In this document: one piece after another, positions 4,212 to 12,312 of the stretch
Layout: each line of letters opens with the position of its first letter
Position numbering within the stretch: position 1 is the stretch's first letter
Source: Candidatus Bipolaricaulia bacterium
GTDB lineage: Bacteria > Bipolaricaulota > Bipolaricaulia > JBHIAT01
Length of the DNA: 19,889 nt
Direction: 5' to 3'
Assembly (NCBI GenBank): GCA_046758705.1
Contig: JBHIAT010000056.1
Location: 1-19,889, forward strand
The notes under the pieces: generated by a model
Databases searched by the model: none
The model's input: the letters and a program-made list of their open reading frames with translations, nothing else
Told to the model about the DNA's origin: nothing
Made by a program: the position numbers and the translations under genes

Positions 4212-5174
4212 ATGAACGAGACGCTGGGTGTGCTGGAGACGACCCGAGGGGTGGTCGAGCGCAGTCAGGCAGTCCGGATCGACCGCCGGGCGATCGACGA
4301 ATTCTGCCACCGGCTTTTGGCGGAGAACGTTCGCCCTCCCGAATGGGATCGAAACGTCCATTTCTACGACGGCGGGGCACGAACCGTCCAGTACCTGTTG
4401 ATCCTGGACAGCTTGAACTTCTGCTTCTGGGGCGAGCCGCGATGGCGCATCGTTTACCGCGGACAGCCTCTGGACGGCTACAACGCGTTGGCCGCCGCGT
4501 TGAAGCGGACCGTCGAGGACGGGGGTCCAATCCTGGACGCAGATTATCTGTCTAAGATCTCCAAGATCGAGCTCCGCCATATCTTCCAAGCTGAGGGGAA
4601 GATTGCGCTGTTCGAGGAGCGGCTTCGTATCCTTCAGGAGACCGGTTCGGTTCTGGCCGAACGGTACGATGGAAGCGCAACCTCCCTGGTCGAGCGGGCC
4701 GGGGAACGAGCGGTCAAGCTCGCCAGGCGGTTGGTCGCTGACTTCCCGTCGTTTCGGGATGAAGCCAGTCATCGGGGCGATCGGGTCCGCTTCTACAAAC
4801 GGGCGCAGATCTTCGCCGCCGACCTCCACGGCGCCTTCGACGGGAAGGCGTGGGGGACGTTCACCGATCTGGATCGGCTCACCTGTTTTGCTGACTACAA
4901 GCTTCCGCAAGTGTTACGTCATCTGGGGATCTTGATCTATGCTCCGCCGCTTGCCGCGGCGGTGGATCTCAGGGAACCGATCGAGGCGGGGAGCGAGGTG
5001 GAGGTTGAGATTCGGGCGAGCACCGTCTGGGCGGTGGAGTGGATCCGAAGAGGTTTAGCGACGTCAGGCATGCCGCTGAAGTCGGTTGAGATCGATTGGA
5101 TCCTGTGGCATCTGGGGCAGCAGGAGCGGTTTAACAAGCACCCTCACCATCGGACGTTAACGGTTTTTTACTGA
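4212..5174 (+). CDS. qng1: Queuosine-nucleotide N-glycosylase/hydrolase (Q salvage protein, DUF2419/C9orf64/QNG1 family)
   Basis: Family motifs LDSLNFCFW, F.SFRD, FYKRAQIFAADL, LTCFADYKLPQVL, EVEIRA, EIDWILW and terminal HHRTLTVFY; adjacent to tgt. Confidence 0.93.
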   Translation: MNETLGVLETTRGVVERSQAVRIDRRAIDEFCHRLLAENVRPPEWDRNVHFYDGGARTVQYLLILDSLNFCFWGEPRWRIVYRGQPLDGYNALAAALKRTVEDGGPILDADYLSKISKIELRHIFQAEGKIALFEERLRILQETGSVLAERYDGSATSLVERAGERAVKLARRLVADFPSFRDEASHRGDRVRFYKRAQIFAADLHGAFDGKAWGTFTDLDRLTCFADYKLPQVLRHLGILIYAPPLAAAVDLREPIEAGSEVEVEIRASTVWAVEWIRRGLATSGMPLKSVEIDWILWHLGQQERFNKHPHHRTLTVFY

Positions 5175-5184
5175 GGGTATAGGG

Positions 5185-6396
5185 ATGAGCGTTTCATTCG
5201 AGGTCACCGTAAACGATCGGCAGACAGCGGCCCGGACCGGGGTTCTCAACACACCGCACGGGACGGTCGAGACCCCGGCGTTCGTGGCCGTCGCAACCCA
5301 GGCGACGGTCAAAGCGCTAACGCCGGACGATCTCAGAGGGGTCAGCATTCAGATGACCATTGCCAACACCTACCATCTCCATCTTCAGCCCGGTGAAGCG
5401 CGCGTCGCCGGACTCGGCGGATTGCACCGATTCATGGGCTGGGATGGCCCGATGATGACCGATTCGGGCGGGTTCCAGATCTTCAGTCTCGGGGCGGGGA
5501 AGGAACACGGCGTCGGGAAGATCGCCTCGATCTTCCCAGAAGAGTCCGGCCCAGGGGAACCGGAACCAGACTCCCCTAAAGAAAACTCGCTCGTCGAGAT
5601 CGATGAGGACGGGGTCGAATTCCGATCTCATCTGGACGGCTCGCTCCACCGTTTCACCCCGGAGGGCGTGATCGACATACAGAGACAGTTGGGAGCGGAC
5701 ATCATCCTGGTTTTGGATGAGTGCACTTCCCCACTCCACGACCGTGCGTATACGGAGCGGGCGATGGAGCGGACCCATCGCTGGGCGGTCCGCACCCTCC
5801 AGTACTATGCATCGCAGGCGAACAGGGATCAGGCACTGTTCGGGATCGTCCAGGGCGGCGCGTTCCAGGATCTGCGCGACAGCAGCGCACAGTTCATCGG
5901 GGGATTGGGGTTCGACGGGCTTGCGATCGGCGGCTCACTTGGTAAGTCGAAACGAGATATGCACCGCATCCTGGAGTGGACGGTGCCCCGGCTCCCGGAG
6001 CGATTGCCGAGACACCTGCTGGGGATCGGGGAGGTCGAGGATATCTTTGAGATCGTCTCCCGCGGGATCGATACGTTCGACTGCGCTGCCCCAACCCGAC
6101 TGGCACGCAACGGCGCCCTGTTCGTCCGAGGCGAGAAGAAATTTCGGATCCAGATCCTAAACGCCCGGTTCAAGGACGATCCAAGACCGGTAGCAGAAGG
6201 GTGTCGTTGCTACACCTGCCGGCATCTCTCTAGAGCCTATCTTCATCATCTGTTCAATGCCAACGAGTTGCTCTCCTACCGGCTGGCCAGCCTGCACAAC
6301 CTCTATTTCATCGAGTCGTTGGTGGAGGAGATCCGGGAGGCGATCCGGGCGGGATGGTTCTCGGAGCTCAGGCAGCGGTGGCTCGGTCATGCTTAA
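5185..6396 (+). CDS. tgt: tRNA-guanine(34) transglycosylase
   Basis: ARTG..TPHG..TP.F, ANTYHL, TDSGGFQ, LDEC, GIVQGG, HLLGIG, DTFDC..PTR.ARNG, Zn site CRCYTC...HNL. Confidence 0.97.
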   Translation: MSVSFEVTVNDRQTAARTGVLNTPHGTVETPAFVAVATQATVKALTPDDLRGVSIQMTIANTYHLHLQPGEARVAGLGGLHRFMGWDGPMMTDSGGFQIFSLGAGKEHGVGKIASIFPEESGPGEPEPDSPKENSLVEIDEDGVEFRSHLDGSLHRFTPEGVIDIQRQLGADIILVLDECTSPLHDRAYTERAMERTHRWAVRTLQYYASQANRDQALFGIVQGGAFQDLRDSSAQFIGGLGFDGLAIGGSLGKSKRDMHRILEWTVPRLPERLPRHLLGIGEVEDIFEIVSRGIDTFDCAAPTRLARNGALFVRGEKKFRIQILNARFKDDPRPVAEGCRCYTCRHLSRAYLHHLFNANELLSYRLASLHNLYFIESLVEEIREAIRAGWFSELRQRWLGHA

Positions 6397-6457
6397 GATA
6401 GGATGAGATAAGGTGATAGAACCGGGAGCACCCAATGCCGAAACTGTCTATAGTTAA

Positions 6458-7585
6458 TTAGAAAGTCATTTCGCAAATGGGACATACAAGATGCGCTAGG
6501 AACCAGTGGCCGTCAGCGTGTGTATCGAGGGGGACAAGTTTCAGCAAAATTGTGGTATTACATTGAGGGCATCGAAATTCGGTTAGGCCGATATCGCTCC
6601 ATAATTTTAGCGCATCTTCTCGACCTTCGACGATCGAAAGAGTATAAGAGCTCGTTTTTTGGTCTTTAGTGTCATTTTCCCCCAGAAAGGCGGGAATCTT
6701 GCTCAATATTTCGCGTGGTGTATGATAACCCTTTACCATGTAGTCATTTGCTCCTAACTCGAGGCCTTTTTGAATATTTTCTTTTTCTCCTAATACTGAA
6801 AGGATAATAACCGGTATTTCTTTTGTTGTCTCATCAGCACGAATTTTTTTCAAGAGCTCAAACCCATGAAGCTTCGGGAGTATTAAATCCAATAGAATTA
6901 AATCTGGTTTCTCGGTCTTGACCAGTTCCCATCCGCTTGCACCATCTTCAGCTTCTAGAATATTGTAACCACCACTTTCAAGAACATCATGGTAGATACG
7001 CCGAAATTCTACCTGATCCTCAACAATTAAAATGGTGCCTGTGTGGATGGTGGTCATATCTTTTCTCCCTAAATCGTCGGTTCTCTGGATGAGCGGGGGG
7101 CTCGCCTTCTCTTCCTCCTCCTGCTCGCTAGGGCCTCCGGGTTGCATTCGACCGTAAGTGATCTCGATCGTCCGTTTGATCTCGGCGGGGTTGGAGACAC
7201 ACGGCCGGATCTCCATACCTGTCTGGGTCCGCAGATCATCGATGATCATGACGTCATTGGGGTCGCCGATCGCCACCACCAGCCGATTGTCGGTCTTTTG
7301 GATCGGCATCACGATCTTGCGGCGGGCAAAATCCTCATCGACCAGCGCCAGCACGTCGCGATCGATCTCCTGGTCGGCCAGCTGGATATATTCATAGCCC
7401 GTCTGCTGGTAGAGCGCCTCGCCGAGATCCTCCTCGGTGATGAACCCTTCCTCGATCAGGATCTCACCGAGCAGTTTCCCAGTCCTATCGACCCTCTGAA
7501 TCGCCAGTGCCTTGTTTAATTCGGTCTCGGAGAGCACCCCCATGTCGATCAGGATCTCTCCCAAGCGATCACCGAACCTTGGCAC
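6458..7585 (-). CDS. MshEN/T2SSE_N + receiver (REC) + C-terminal CPxC...CPxC putative Zn-ribbon protein (copy A)
   Basis: RLGEILIDMGVLSETELNKALAIQ...LLGEILIEEGFITEEDLGEALYQQ; LVVAIGDP.D; REC motifs [31 protein letters not shown]; tail CPQC...CPIC. GTG start with AGAGGTG SD. Confidence 0.88.
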   Translation of the reverse strand: MPRFGDRLGEILIDMGVLSETELNKALAIQRVDRTGKLLGEILIEEGFITEEDLGEALYQQTGYEYIQLADQEIDRDVLALVDEDFARRKIVMPIQKTDNRLVVAIGDPNDVMIIDDLRTQTGMEIRPCVSNPAEIKRTIEITYGRMQPGGPSEQEEEEKASPPLIQRTDDLGRKDMTTIHTGTILIVEDQVEFRRIYHDVLESGGYNILEAEDGASGWELVKTEKPDLILLDLILPKLHGFELLKKIRADETTKEIPVIILSVLGEKENIQKGLELGANDYMVKGYHTPREILSKIPAFLGENDTKDQKTSSYTLSIVEGREDALKLWSDIGLTEFRCPQCNTTILLKLVPLDTHADGHWFLAHLVCPICEMTF

Positions 7586-7589
7586 CGTG

Positions 7590-7614
7590 GGTCACCTCTT
7601 TGTGATTATACCCC
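7590..7614 (-). promoter_or_regulatory. -10 box TATAAT plus SD AGAGGTG upstream of copy A
   Basis: Minus strand ggggTATAATcacaaAGAGGTGacccacgGTG; no convincing -35. Confidence 0.5.
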
Positions 7615-7662
7615 ACTTCACTACGTTCCGAACGGGACAGTACGCCGAAATCGTCCATATAC

Positions 7663-7737
7663 TTAGAAAGACCTTTTACAACTTGGACACGGACATACAA
7701 AATGTCCTGAGAACCAGTGGCCGTTAGCGCGTGTATT
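7663..7737 (-). pseudogene. Out-of-frame remnant of the Zn-ribbon tail of copy B
   Basis: Translates NTRANGHWFSGHFVCPCPSCKRSF*, aligning with DTHADGHWFLAHLVCPICEMTF* of copy A; begins 2 nt after the copy B stop codon. Confidence 0.85.
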
Positions 7738-7739
7738 GC

Positions 7740-8651
7740 CTAGGAGCTCATTTCTTTGATATCAGCTTTTGCCAGCAAGGCATGAATCTTGCTCAATATT
7801 TCACGTGGTGTATAATAACCCTTTACTATGTAGTCATCTGCTCCCAACTCGAGACCCTTTTGAATATCTTCTTTTTCTCCTAATATTGAAAGGATAATAA
7901 CCGGTATTTCTTTTGTTGCTTCATCAGCACGGATTTTTCCCAACAACTTAAATCCATGAAGCTTCGGGAGTATCAAATCCAATAGAATTAAATCTGGTTT
8001 CTTGGTCTTGACCAGTTCCCATCCGCTTTCATTATCTTTAGCTTCTAAAACCTCGTAACCATCACTTACAAAAACATCACGATAAATACGCCGAAATTTT
8101 GCCTGATCCTCAACAATTAAAATAGTGCCTGTGTGGATTGTCTTCGAACCTTTTCTCTTTGATAAAGAGGGCCTCTCCTCTCCCTCCTGCTCGCCAGGGC
8201 TTCTGAGGTGCGTTCGACCGTAAGCGACCTCGATCTTCCGTTTGATCTCGGCGGGGCTGGAGACACGCGGCCGGATCTCCATACCTGTCTGGGTCCGCAG
8301 ATCATCGATGATCCTGATGTCGGTGGGGTCGCCGATCGCCACCACCAGCCGATTGTCGGTCTTTTGGATCGGCATCACGATCTTGCGGCGGGCAAAATCC
8401 TCATCGACCAGCGCCAGCACGTCGCGATCGATCTCCTGGTCGGCCAGCTGGATATATTCATAGCCCGTCTGCTGGTAGAGCGCCTCGCCGAGATCCTCCT
8501 CGGTGATGAACCCTTCCTCGATCAGGATCTCACCGAGCAGTTTCCCAGTCCTATCGACCCTCTGAATCGCCAGTGCCTTGTTTAATTCGGTCTCAGAGAG
8601 CATTCCCATGTCGACCAGGATCTCTCCCAAGCGATCACCGAACCTCGGCAC
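7740..8651 (-). CDS. MshEN/T2SSE_N + REC protein (copy B), C-terminally truncated relative to copy A
   Basis: Same architecture and near-identical N-terminal half; REC motifs intact (VED, LLDL, ILS, IVK); ends EMSS*. Confidence 0.86.
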   Translation of the reverse strand: MPRFGDRLGEILVDMGMLSETELNKALAIQRVDRTGKLLGEILIEEGFITEEDLGEALYQQTGYEYIQLADQEIDRDVLALVDEDFARRKIVMPIQKTDNRLVVAIGDPTDIRIIDDLRTQTGMEIRPRVSSPAEIKRKIEVAYGRTHLRSPGEQEGEERPSLSKRKGSKTIHTGTILIVEDQAKFRRIYRDVFVSDGYEVLEAKDNESGWELVKTKKPDLILLDLILPKLHGFKLLGKIRADEATKEIPVIILSILGEKEDIQKGLELGADDYIVKGYYTPREILSKIHALLAKADIKEMSS

Positions 8652-8655
8652 CGTG

Positions 8656-8680
8656 GGTCACCTCTTTGTGATTATACCCC
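8656..8680 (-). promoter_or_regulatory. -10 box TATAAT plus SD upstream of copy B (identical to copy A)
   Basis: ATTATA at 8671-8676 on the plus strand, inside the identical 42-nt upstream block. Confidence 0.5.
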
Positions 8681-8719
8681 ACTTCACTACGTTTTAGGTG
8701 GCCTTCCACCGCCTGAGGC

Positions 8720-9799
8720 TCAAGTTAAAGGAATTTTAAAAACAAAATGGCTGCCCTTTCCCACAGCAGACGTTACAGAGATATCTCCGTGCTGCAACGA
8801 CATAAACTTTTTTGTGATATACAAGCCAAGACCCGAACCGATCTCTGGCGTTGGACCGCCACTGAAAATTTGATCTCTCTTAAACAGTCTATTTAATAAA
8901 TCGTCGGACATTCCCTCGCCTGTGTCTACCACTTCAACGATACCAAAACCGTTTTCGCTTTTTGTTCTGATCGTAATGGACCCCTCATGAGTGAATTTGA
9001 CTGCGTTATCGATCACATTGCTTAATGCGTCAACCATTTTATCTTTATCAGCAAGAACAATAATTTCATAATCCATTTCCTCAAGATTCAGGGCTAACCC
9101 TTTTTTCTTGATTCTCTCGTGATAATCTCGAACGGCTAGATCTATCACTTCCTTTAATCTGACGGGTCGTATATCGACCGATATCACGCTGCGTTCAATT
9201 CTTGATACATTCAACAGATCAGAAATCAAGCGGTAATTCTTGGAGCTTATCTCCCGCATCTCCTGGAGATATTGCTTTTGTTGGGCCGTTAAATCACCCG
9301 TCAATCCCATAAGCATGTTATCTATATATCCCATGATGAGTGCCACTGGGGTTCTCATTTGATGAGACACCATGGAAACGAAATCGCTTTTCATCTGGTC
9401 AATTTGCTTGCGCTCGATGGCATAGCGCATGGCGCGCACCAGCAAGTGGTTATCCAACTGCCCCTTGACCAGATAGTCTTGCGCACCCTCATGCACGGTC
9501 TTTACGGCGAGCGCCTCATCGTCGAGACCGGTCAACACCACGATCGGCACGCCTGATGCTTGCGTGTGCACCTCGGCGAACGTGTCAATTCCCTGGCTGT
9601 CCGGCAGCGACAGATCCAACAGGACCACGTTGATCCCTCCCTCGGCCAGGTGCTCCAGCCCGATCGAGAGCCGGTCGGCGCACTCCAGATCGAACGAAGC
9701 ACCCTTCACTTCGGCCAGCACCTCCCTGATCAGTCGAGCGTCTCCGGGATTGTCCTCGATCAGCAGGACTTTGATGTGTTCGTTCTCCATTTCATTCAC
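8720..9799 (-). CDS. Cytoplasmic hybrid histidine kinase, REC-HisKA-HATPase (start 9799 GTG or 9790 ATG)
   Basis: REC motifs [27 protein letters not shown]-box VSHQMRTP; N-box [10 protein letters not shown]1 DTGEG; G2 GSGLGL. Confidence 0.92.
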
Positions 9800-10241
9800 C
9801 CGGTGGCAGTTTCACGATGGTCAACCAAAAGTCTTCGATGGACCTCACCACCATGATGAACTGCTCGAAGTCAACCGGCTTGGTGATGTAGCAGTTCGCA
9901 TTGAGGCCATAGGCTTTGATGACATCCTCTTCAGCCTGCGAAGTGGTCAGGACGACCACAGGGATTCGCTTCAGCTTTCCATCGACTTTGATCTCCGCTA
10001 GCACCTCACGCCCGTCTTTCTTCGGCAGGTTCAAATCGAGCAGGATGAGGTCTGGGCGAGGCGCATCGGCATACTTGCCCTCTCGACGCAGGAACGCCAT
10101 GGCTTCCACCCCATCCTTGACCACATTCAGGTTGTTGCGCATCTTGCTATCATTGAAGCCTTCTATCGTCAGGCGTACGTCACCGGGGTTGTCCTCCACC
10201 AGCAAAATCTCAACAGATCTACCGATCTTTCCAATATTCAT
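9792..10241 (-). CDS. Single-domain response regulator, Rcp1 (phytochrome-associated) type
   Basis: [42 protein letters not shown] and the C-terminal FWLTIVKLP typical of Rcp1-type receivers; ATGA overlap with the upstream kinase. Confidence 0.93.
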
Positions 10242-12112
10242 GGTCGTTCACCTCCTCTGTCCGAGATCGTGAAGTGGAATGTCGAGCCCTGACCCGATTC
10301 TGACTCCACCCAGATACGTCCACCGTGGCGTTCGACAATCTTCTTGCAGATCGCCAGGCCGATGCCGGTGCCCGGATACTCCCCCTTGCCGTGCAGACGT
10401 TGGAAGATAACGAAGATGCGTTCGGCATACTTCGGATCAATGCCAATGCCGTTATCACGGATGGAGAACAGCCACTCGCCATTTTTGTGCTCCGCCCCGA
10501 CATGGATTTCTGGCGGCTTATCGCTCTGAAACTTGATGGCGTTACCGATCAAGTTCTGAAACAACTGACCCAGTTGCAGGTTGTCGGTCATCACCGTCGG
10601 CAGGGGATCGTGAATCACCCGCGTACCACTCTCCTCAATCACCATTTGTAGATTGGCGAGTGCCTGGTCCAGTACCGTCTCACAGTCGGTCGGCTCGAAA
10701 TCCTTACCCTGCGTGCCCACCCGGGAATAGGCCAACAAGTCATTGATCAGCCTCTGCATCCTGTTTGAGCCATCCACGGCATAGGCGATGAACTCGTCGG
10801 CATCGGAATCGAGTTGGCCTTCGTAGCGCTTTGCCAACAGCTGCGTATAGCTCGCCACCATACGCAGCGGCTCTTGCAGGTCGTGCGAGGCGACATAGGC
10901 AAACTGTTCCAGGTCGGCATTGGAACGCGCCAACTCCACGTTCGCCCGCTGCAGCTGTTCGGCACGCCGGCGCAACTGGGCCTCTTTCTCGGACAGGGCG
11001 GCCGCCATGGTGTTGAATTCGCGTGCCAGCAAGCCCAGTTCGTCGCCGGAGGTTTCGGGCAGACGCAGCTCCAGTTGACCCCGGCCGAAGCGCATCGCCC
11101 CGGCCTGCAGGGCCAACACCGGGCGGGTGATGGTTCTCGCCAGTCCAAGAGCCACGGCCGACGCAGTCAGCAGCGACAGACTGCCGGTCAACAGTATCGT
11201 ATTGCCGAAGGCGCGGGAGGGCTCGACCGCCTCGGCTTGGTCAATCTTGACGACGAGGCAGATTTGACGTTCGGCCAGCCAGCGGTAAACGGCAATCACG
11301 GGGACCCCACGATAGTCGTCGGCGAAGACCACCCCACTGTTACCCACCAGACAGCGGTCAACCGTCTCGGTGCGAATGGCGCGCCGGAGCACCGCAGGAT
11401 CGGAGATGAAGCGTGGCTGGGTGATGAGCAGGTTCAAAATGTTCACCAAGAAAGCGTCGTCGGTCTGGTGCAGGTCGGTGCGCCGATTGATCATGGTGTT
11501 CATCACGTCCAGGTTCAGACGCCCGGTGAGGACACCCAGCAATCTCCCATTAGCCGACCTGATCGGCGCAGAGACGGTCATCGCCGGGGCCCGGAGCGTG
11601 CGGGAATAATAGGGGTTCAGGACGTACGGGCCGTTCCGACCGTTGATAAAGTAGGGGCGCTTATCTTTGAATCTGCCCTCTTCACTCGCATCGGTGGCGA
11701 CAATGACCTTTCCGACTTCAGGCTCGATCACCAGCAACGCCATAAATCCACGCTCCTCGCCGACCCAGGGCTGTAGTTCTTCCACCACACGGTCATGGGC
11801 GGCCTGGATTGCAGCCGGGAACAACAATATGGAGTTTGACCCGACAGTTAGGGTGATCAGCTCCTTGTGAAAACGGAGTGAGGCCGCCAGGCTGACAATG
11901 TCCGACAACCGCGCCTCGACCCAGCTATTCAACGCGGCCTGCTTTTCAATGGCCACCGAAAGCAAATCCGAGACGGTGGCCACCTGGAGCGCGGCACGAC
12001 CGCTGTTATAGGAAAGCACGCTCACGCCCGCCAGGAGCCCGGCGGCGAACAGGACAAAGACCAGCGTTACCTTGGGAGTTATGTTCAGTCGCAGCTTTAT
12101 CGCCGATTTCAC
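10238..12112 (-). CDS. Membrane sensor histidine kinase: TM-dCache-TM-HAMP-HisKA-HATPase with Cph1/BphP-type transmitter (exact start uncertain)
   Basis: Two hydrophobic segments; Cache motifs RPYF..G...PYYS, VSAPI, DYRG; HAMP ITRP...[62 protein letters not shown]. Confidence 0.93.
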
Positions 12113-12259
12113 TCCTTTACGTTTTACTCTAAGGGTCGCCCCTAAATCTGTTGACGGTCACGGCCATCTGGTATCTATTATGCCCCATGTACAAATTTTT
12201 GGGTACGATGTTACCATCCTCGCTCATTTTTGGGAGGGCTCCTGAGCGGTGCTGTTGGA

Positions 12260-12288
12260 TTGAAATCGTTGCTGATCTTCGCTATAAT
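12260..12288 (+). promoter_or_regulatory. Putative sigma70 promoter: TTGAAA-N17-TATAAT
   Basis: Near-consensus with 17-nt spacer; the -10 ends 24 nt upstream of ATG 12313. Confidence 0.75.
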
Positions 12289-12312
12289 AGCGGCAAAGGG
12301 CAATAGAACGGC

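Follow-up and report, generated by a model that had tools for sequence, protein, structure and literature searches.

Described counterparts of the two fused proteins

The pairing of a MshEN domain with a response-regulator receiver domain (REC) is already on record. Supplementary Table 4 of Wang et al. 2016 (PMC5013675) lists 'MshEN - REC' for Deltaproteobacteria and Deinococcus-Thermus, with Geobacter lovleyi Glov_2262, in an entry that gives no experimental reference, and a literature search on the locus tag Glov_2262 found no paper. Here we describe two adjacent genes, copies A and B, that encode this pairing in a Candidatus Bipolaricaulia bacterium. The window, meaning the whole stretch of DNA analysed, covers positions 1 to 19,889 of contig JBHIAT010000056.1 (19,889 nucleotides, nt). 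Taken together, the data point to a real, lineage-restricted and probably young fusion that recreates a known domain pairing, with an undescribed tail as passenger. The parts of the two genes are:

6458..7585, minus strand: copy A, 375 amino acids (aa), with MshEN head, PilB linker, receiver and four-cysteine tail (open reading frame, ORF, and Pfam).
7148..7585, minus strand: MshEN/GSPII head of A (residues 1-146), motif I at 7567-7496 and motif II at 7474-7403; GC content at third codon positions (GC3) 0.77.
7073..7147, minus strand: linker of A up to D171, assigned to PilB by DNA homology to paralogs; fusion point 7073.
7055..7072, minus strand: apparent former leader of the receiver gene in A (purine-rich, AGGGAG) plus ATG (M177), in frame; a possible internal start, from its sequence and from stand-alone relatives.
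6686..7045, minus strand: receiver domain of A (residues 181-300) with D190, D233, S263 and K285; GC3 0.35.
6461..6673, minus strand: tail of A (residues 305-375) with C339/C342/C368/C371, a predicted zinc ribbon; L353 and H356 substituted.
7740..8651, minus strand: copy B, 303 aa, with MshEN head and receiver, tail absent, junction 24 nt shorter and internal ATG missing.

Both heads score well above the thresholds of PF05157 (64.2 bits in A and 71.6 bits in B; cut-off 23.1) and of NF053729, the NCBIfam model of the cyclic di-GMP (c-di-GMP) motif (residues 7-61, model positions 1-53 of 53; 64.1 and 65.1 bits; cut-off 38). The pattern (R/K/L)LGxxhhxxGhhxxxxLxxxLxxQ is satisfied by two 24-residue copies in each head. 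Motif I (R7-Q30) follows the canonical pattern; in both A and B, motif II (L38-Q61) opens with leucine. A first-pass annotation, made from the letters alone, had described these tandem motifs and the R-to-L change in the second, and the NF053729 scores and residue check bear it out. The MshEN_C (T2SSE_N1) subdomain is also present (PF05157 above cut-off, residues 63-146/147). No match to the ATPase domain (PF00437; Walker A and B, Asp and His boxes) was found in A or B, and PilB homology stops at residue 171, in agreement with the earlier description of a PilB/GspE-type N-terminal domain with no ATPase behind it. Judged by their sequences, A and B are not PilB/GspE/MshE extension ATPases.

The receivers match Response_reg (PF00072) with 92.1 bits in A and 89.5 bits in B (cut-off 30.2). 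Each retains the full set of phosphorylation residues that had been noted at first reading: E189/D190, D233, S263 and K285 in A, and D182, D225, S255 and K277 in B. In the structure model of A, the receiver core is predicted with per-residue confidence (pLDDT) of 88-98 and superimposes on the RR468, PhoB and VicR receivers with Foldseek template-modelling (TM) scores of 0.91-0.95, normalised to the target. The cysteines of the A tail are arranged as CPQC-x25-CPIC (C339, C342, C368, C371), so the cysteine tail reported earlier is there with a spacing one residue longer than the x24 given for it.

Glov_2262 is the nearest counterpart by listed domain architecture. It has a full MshEN domain followed by a receiver and no ATPase, exactly the order of copy B. 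However, the two halves of A and B have closer relatives elsewhere, namely the PilB paralogs of their own genome and a receiver-tail family, and A adds the cysteine tail. Because of these closest relatives of each half, together with the GC3 step and the retained internal ribosome-binding site (RBS), an origin independent of Glov_2262 and other MshEN-REC proteins is likely. In the ESM Atlas, 10 of the 30 clusters nearest to B carry MshEN and REC (275-280 aa, score 0.97, mostly Thermodesulfobacteriota; domain order not shown). Copy B thus has a catalogued architecture and probably works like proteins of that kind, though probably of independent origin.

Bdellovibrio bacteriovorus Bd2402 (REC-MshEN_N-unknown domain) is reported to bind c-di-GMP, with 0.4 uM in a note and 0.04 uM in a table of the same supplement (PMC5013675). 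Like A and B, it is a response regulator with a MshEN motif and no ATPase; in contrast to them, it opens with the receiver, has of MshEN only the MshEN_N subdomain and ends in a different domain, and its binding mode is uncharacterised in that source. The N-terminal domain and motif pair are also shared with the PilB/MshE/PilF ATPases (Vibrio cholerae MshEN, 5HTL; Thermus thermophilus PilF GSPII-B; Geobacter PilB, 5ZFR/5TSG). PilF GSPII-B has L196 at position 1 of motif II and a dissociation constant of 6 nM for c-di-GMP, compared to 23 nM for L196R, and the extended MshEN consensus permits leucine at this position (PMC11731258). The motif II leucine of A and B corresponds to PilF L196, and D108 of A aligns with PilF D266. 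Unlike these extension ATPases, A and B lack the ATPase, lie outside a pilus operon and have a spacer of 7 residues between the motifs, compared to 5 in V. cholerae MshEN. Spacer length varies across the Wang et al. alignment, in which Bd2402 has a shorter one (PMC5013675), and Geobacter PilB sequences align at the A/B spacer without a gap.

The first-pass annotation knew of no characterised protein with all three parts. A second MshEN-REC-four-cysteine-tail protein was indeed absent from our full-length, stored-protein and receiver-tail-locus searches, and the literature covered (few subscription journals) held no study of a MshEN-REC-zinc-ribbon protein; the two-domain MshEN-REC core, on the other hand, is catalogued and common. 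Head and receiver occur together outside the locus in 5 of 266 stored proteins, in other arrangements and none with the tail. An HMMER search of 1.84 billion representatives with B returned mostly multi-receiver or multi-MshEN proteins among its best 150, a range that misses lower-scoring fusions.

Junctions and origin of the fusion

A sharp GC step marks the junction and the head sequence is repeated in the genome, so an assembly chimera of a PilB paralog and an unrelated low-GC contig was considered; the first-pass annotation had itself raised this concern about the MshEN-REC junctions. The stretch is present in four public DNA runs from one study, in three of them at 95-96% of sampled words; one of the runs may be the source sample. 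No RNA run was listed as containing it, which speaks neither for nor against expression. In each of those three (X1-X3, three samples of the one study), separately assembled contigs span junction A at 6799-7231, junction B at 7889-8297 and, at 7598-7916, the passage from the end of B to the start of A, all with 0 differences. None of the three holds the whole region in one piece, as contigs break inside the near-identical heads. In run X4, a 217-nt contig bridges junction A with 24 differences and two in-frame 3-nt insertions, and in a second contig the end of a receiver runs straight into the upstream segment and head of another, diverged copy. Diverged relatives of the fusion are thus present in at least one further population. 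As junctions A and B also differ from one another, we reject the chimera, which has next to no probability left. The fusion is real and not an assembly error.

The features that bear on its origin are:

8652..8718, minus strand: upstream segment arriving with the head; an alignment of 72 columns with the sequence preceding the C97 paralog gives 75% identity (E 3.6e-7).
7586..7627, minus strand: identical 42-nt copy of the head-upstream segment, ahead of A; edge of the apparent tandem duplication.
7666..7737, minus strand: remnant of the lost tail of B, past its stop codon (alignment, E 2.5e-6).
8720..9799, minus strand: REC-HisKA-HATPase kinase, 359 aa, with H146; a homolog of the kinases found ahead of stand-alone receiver-tail genes.
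9792..10241, minus strand: single-domain receiver, 149 aa, upstream gene of the operon (ORF and Pfam).
10238..12112, minus strand: 624-aa membrane sensor kinase whose gene opens the operon, with Cache-like (below cut-off), HAMP, HisKA and HATPase domains (Pfam).

The head and linker likely descend from a PilB-type ATPase paralog of the same genome. PF05157 has 10 matches in this genome and none in 40 sampled relatives of the class. Heads on contigs C55, C139 (two), C60, C258 and C97 are 67-77% identical to the A head over 61-148 aligned residues, and more distant ones on C166 and C271 are 43-46% identical; the closest external match to residues 1-172 is 39% identical. In the tree, the A and B heads (97/99 for the pair) fall among the paralogs of their own genome in a group of seven rows (83/95, not starred). 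DNA homology to four of these paralogs terminates at the same base, 7073 (codon D171), and at the other end homology to the C97 paralog begins 2 nt past the stop codon of the neighbouring kinase gene. GC3 is 0.77-0.78 in the heads and 0.75-0.79 in the host genes tgt, pnp and glmM, compared to 0.31-0.35 in the receivers and 0.44 in the A tail.

The paralog heads mostly sit on PilB/GspE-type ATPases, scattered through the genome and several of them outside pilus loci. Contigs C55, C60, C97, C139, C258, C166, C271, C46 and C207 carry a lineage-specific expansion of this type. Some copies are defective: that on C55 lacks Walker A and B, that on C97 lacks MshEN_C, and that on C271 is apparently frameshifted. 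Pairwise ratios of nonsynonymous to synonymous substitution rates (dN/dS) among the PilB-type copies are about 0.3-0.6.

The segment at 8652..8718 contains TATAAT and a GAGGTG RBS and may act as a promoter. A promoter and terminator scan gave 4 promoter-like sites compared to 3.3 expected, and on the minus strand it placed none ahead of A or B. An IS200/IS605-like end in the region upstream of the head was considered and rejected, since the segment matches only C97 and its two copies here. A separate element of ~100-120 nt upstream of the PilB paralog on C55 (upstream of 12257) recurs elsewhere on C55 and C60 and precedes neither A nor B.

In A, the 15 nt past the fusion point read TTAGGGAGAAAAGAT and are followed by ATG (M177). 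This stretch resembles the leaders of stand-alone relatives, and M177 is the family start position in 41 of 44-46 aligned relatives. The segment first described as an acidic linker is indeed a linker, but of another nature: PilB's own linker, up to D171, followed by the former 5' leader of the receiver gene. It had also been reported that only copy A has the tail. This holds for the intact tail; B, however, formerly had one, of which the remnant past its stop codon is still recognisable.

Sequence comparison places the ancestral operon in the order sensor kinase, receiver, hybrid kinase and stand-alone receiver-tail gene. A low-GC kinase-plus-regulator module would have entered the lineage, after which a PilB paralog would have contributed ~580 nt of its 5' part (upstream region, RBS and 171 codons), inserted in frame between the kinase stop and the receiver RBS; the boundaries of this insert come from sequence comparison, the event itself from reasoning. 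The fused unit would then have been duplicated in tandem, as suggested by the identical 42-nt upstream piece before both copies and by their receivers, which form one clade (98/89). Copy B would afterwards have dropped 24 nt from its junction, the internal ATG among them, together with ~115 nt of the tail. Copy A retains the ATG and the tail, and from its internal start may additionally make the original regulator of ~199 aa. On this evidence, the tail is an inherited passenger lost from copy B. The fusion is likely recent and restricted to this lineage.

Three observations count against this account. None of the paralogs in the assembly is the exact donor: the upstream region resembles that of C97, and the coding part has C55/C60 as its closest match. 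Synonymous divergence (dS) between A and B is 0.04 in the heads and 0.20 in the receivers, which requires gene conversion or separate head acquisitions; we take the gap to suggest gene conversion, the alternative being that each copy acquired its head separately. Finally, X4 contains related copies with a divergence of about 10-14%, which gives the fusion some age. Taken alone, the insertion of a PilB head into a receiver-tail operon and its later duplication nevertheless seem to us very probable. The locus would then be a clear record of the birth of a multidomain regulator, preserving both breakpoints, a likely donor family, the unfused ancestral operon, an RBS and start codon now inside the fused frame, and the duplication that followed.

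The stand-alone receiver-tail family

The C-terminal half of A and B has its source in a family of stand-alone response regulators. These share with A the cysteines, the GHWF motif, the upstream kinase and, at several loci, tandem copies, but their members are 198-230 aa and carry no MshEN. A full-length search, of which we took the best 120 of 1,758 matches within a length range that left out shorter members, gave 13 tail-bearing proteins besides A, all 206-230 aa with receiver and tail and with MshEN absent. Scanning metagenomes with the tail alignment gave 44 loci; with L027 added, 51 tail-bearing ORFs lie in 44 of 45 loci, the complete ones being 198-214 aa. The counts are not independent, since related samples supplied many of the loci and some loci are duplicates. 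Directly ahead of the tail ORF stands a kinase gene in 32 of 51 cases (45% identity or more to the 8720-9799 kinase in its catalytic part), a tandem copy in 6, a contig edge in 10 and neither kinase nor copy in 3. A MshEN head or PilB ATPase was found at none of the 45 loci. Homologs of two further window genes, encoding the 149-aa receiver and the 624-aa kinase, are also present at several of the loci. Members (L027, L107-L149) are response regulators of ~200 aa, often in tandem pairs and usually right behind one type of histidine kinase.

Receiver identity among tail-bearing members reaches 70%. The four tail cysteines are invariant in all 47 aligned sequences, and A also has GHWF; in the PDxxR segment, however, A departs from the family with L353 (D in 46/46 relatives) and H356 (R in 91%). 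We treat A as a derived fusion and not as a typical member of the family.

The structure model of residues 177-375 (47 sequences, mean pLDDT 87) begins with a standard receiver, connected by a link of low confidence to a small domain whose cysteine pairs flank a beta-hairpin. The tail is predicted to bind zinc as a zinc ribbon. Two receiver clusters in the ESM Atlas share its shape (TM 0.79 and 0.82). Neither Pfam nor NCBIfam gave a match to the A tail at cut-off (best Pfam score 26.5 compared to 27 bits), and matches to zinc ribbons were weak and below cut-off. No solved structure matched the tail: the listed Foldseek matches were all to the receiver, and the best sequence match in the PDB had E 0.009.

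Among described output domains, the nearest is HalOD2 of haloarchaeal response regulators, with two terminal CXXC motifs 20-25 residues apart, a predicted zinc finger, occurrence confined to a few halobacteria and a HalX-like N-terminal part (PMC5847659). Both are receiver-associated output domains ending in paired CXXC, but the HalX-like part and the halobacterial range set HalOD2 apart. No HalOD2 match was found for the A tail (E up to 0.1), nor among 25 of the 61 families listed for 10 tails.

Of the phylum's other genomes, 183 were searched, 70 of which are 90% or more complete, and none gave a match to the tail. A search for tail-only homologs in a large protein set returned 1 match (the query itself) from 4 candidates, with an index strict enough to miss known relatives, and a genome-collection scan on a generic receiver pattern gave L027 as the one full-length match among the 80 loci listed. 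No description of the family was found in the literature covered. The receiver-tail family, with its conserved PDxxRxDGHWF segment and conserved kinase, is thus apparently undescribed, and the present locus exposes its four-cysteine tail as an apparently new receiver output domain with a conserved cognate kinase. In addition, P0199 (329 aa), a double receiver, matches the tail profile weakly (31 bits), which suggests that the tail occurs in a further architecture.

Selection, function and genomic setting

Selection on A and B looks weak and the evidence is mixed. All three versions of the junction are in frame (A, B with its 24-nt indel relative to A, and the X4 contig with 3+3 nt), and the receiver of B is intact though it has no in-frame ATG, GTG or TTG start of its own. 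The A and B receivers differ with dN/dS 0.48 (14 synonymous and 26 non-synonymous changes; p 0.04). In the receiver A departs from 5 of 55 conserved columns and in the tail from 3 of 23; as 41% and 37% of the 46 relatives, respectively, depart as much, A is within the family range.

Our preferred reading, to which we give a probability of about 0.55, is that A and B are phosphate acceptors or sinks of the adjacent kinase, with an appended head that is predicted to bind c-di-GMP. Kinase H146 would phosphorylate D233 of A or D225 of B. With the tail lost or altered, the proteins would act mainly as phosphate sinks or modulators of that phosphorelay, and c-di-GMP on the head would at most alter protein stability or location, head and receiver working side by side and not as an evolved logic gate.

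The 8720-9799 kinase is the presumed cognate kinase of A and B. Phosphotransfer from it is predicted because H146 and the ATP-binding boxes are kept, its dimerization and histidine phosphotransfer (DHp) helix matches 20 distinct helices from kinases at related loci, and the alpha-1 helix and beta5-alpha5 loop of both receivers fit the family consensus. The kinase itself is a mosaic, with GC3 of 0.78 in its receiver, which has 75% DNA identity to C110, and of 0.44 in HisKA-HATPase. Binding of c-di-GMP by the head is likewise predicted, on the strength of the genome's 9 GGDEF matches and of the 6 nM affinity of PilF GSPII-B with leucine at the same position. As L196R in PilF binds less tightly, the R-to-L change in motif II is no sign of decay. 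Both inputs therefore look intact, as the first-pass annotation had proposed: the motif scores above its curated cut-off, and the receiver residues and kinase-contact helix stand beside an intact kinase.

Several points tell against functional upkeep of A and B as a sink with a c-di-GMP-binding head. The neutral probability of an open frame at the A-B divergence is 0.12 for the receiver and 0.65 for the head. The heads have dN/dS 0.78 on 14 changes, which is not significant. The tail of B is lost, and that of A lacks the D of 46/46 relatives and the R of 91%. Changes in X4 amount to 12 non-synonymous and 7 synonymous in A/B, compared to 2 and 9 in tgt (Fisher p 0.026); this count uses 30 of 40 rows among 57, from contigs of depth 2-7 with possible cross-mapped copies, and leaves out 8 rows at 7279-7303 (a paralog contig also in X1-X3), one intergenic and one in the kinase. 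Binding with a 7-residue motif spacer is a prediction, and both the independence of the domains and the role as sink are suggested by the youth of the fusion and its flexible linker.

The strongest of the alternatives is that the locus is near-neutral debris of domain shuffling, in which the working product is the receiver-tail protein made from the internal RBS and ATG of A while B decays. A retains AGGGAG and ATG at the family start position, B has no tail, the A tail has the two substitutions just given, the X4 ratios in A/B and tgt differ, and the genome holds other mosaics and deleted PilB copies. Against this, the three junction versions are in frame, the B receiver is intact with no start of its own, and all phosphorylation and c-di-GMP motif residues are retained. 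The departures of A from conserved columns lie within the family range, and the X4 counts derive from 40 of 57 rows on low-depth contigs with possible cross-mapping. We regard this explanation as unlikely, though it stands next to the preferred one.

The first-pass annotation suggested that the protein could be a two-input adaptor or decoy at a type IV pilus or type II secretion platform. In a full, selected form of this model, the head would dock on PilM/PilC or PilB depending on c-di-GMP, receiver phosphorylation would switch docking, and the kinase operon would control pilus assembly. The head is similar enough to the PilB paralogs (66-77% identical) to have probably retained their binding surfaces, and the genome encodes possible partners elsewhere: pilM/pilN/pilO-like genes, two pilC genes and PilT-like ATPases, together with the 9 GGDEF matches. 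The N1 domain has been proposed to engage the platform and binds PilZ (PMC11656802). The frame is kept in three junction versions, and elsewhere large clusters of proteins of 275-280 aa combine MshEN and REC, a sign that the pairing can be useful. Yet no pilus gene lies in the 19.9-kb window, none of the 45 receiver-tail loci has a MshEN or PilB neighbour, purifying selection is weak, and the donor paralogs are scattered outside pilus loci, some of them internally deleted. An evolved adaptor or decoy is therefore not supported: the genes belong to a two-component operon outside any pilus locus, the fusion was seen only in this lineage, the tail is a passenger and selection is weak. We consider the proposal doubtful. 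There is no sign that the two inputs are coupled or directed at a pilus.

A bolder version, which we rank lower again and think improbable, sees a newborn coincidence detector of c-di-GMP and phosphorelay signals. A lineage with acquired and amplified PilB-type ATPases would have reused one promoter and c-di-GMP head as an exon-like cassette, linking a foreign kinase operon and an undescribed zinc-ribbon output to pilus control. It would have converged on the MshEN-REC design that evolved separately in other phyla, and would be tuned by tandem amplification.

As a signalling system, the sink with its appended head adds little, MshEN-REC being catalogued, the lineage single and uncultured and the signs of selection weak. 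It does provide a fused-versus-unfused pair in which to ask whether fusion of MshEN with a receiver couples the two. The receiver-tail family and Glov_2262-type proteins are better experimental targets than the A/B fusion.

Around the operon, a low-GC divergent intergenic region (12113-12312) separates the sensor kinase gene from a metallophosphoesterase gene and probably holds the operon promoter. On the other side, positions 4212-6396 encode a queuosine salvage protein (PF10343) and, immediately behind it, tRNA-guanine transglycosylase (PF01702), tgt ending 61 nt from the A stop in convergent orientation. A tRNA scan of the window found 0 genes. A 38-nt scrap at 6411-6448, after the A stop, is 82% identical (E 0.001) to C48:15662-15699, which resembles the DDFG motif of an EAL phosphodiesterase gene; a similar scrap follows the tail remnant of B, just before 7627. 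Elsewhere in the genome, a 105-aa protein (L010:3862-4179, minus strand; G000:C177:3862-4179) scores 50.5 bits with NF053729, above cut-off. Its N-terminus of ~40 aa looks by eye like a ribbon-helix-helix DNA-binding domain, with no model match shown, and it is a candidate minimal c-di-GMP-responsive transcription regulator.

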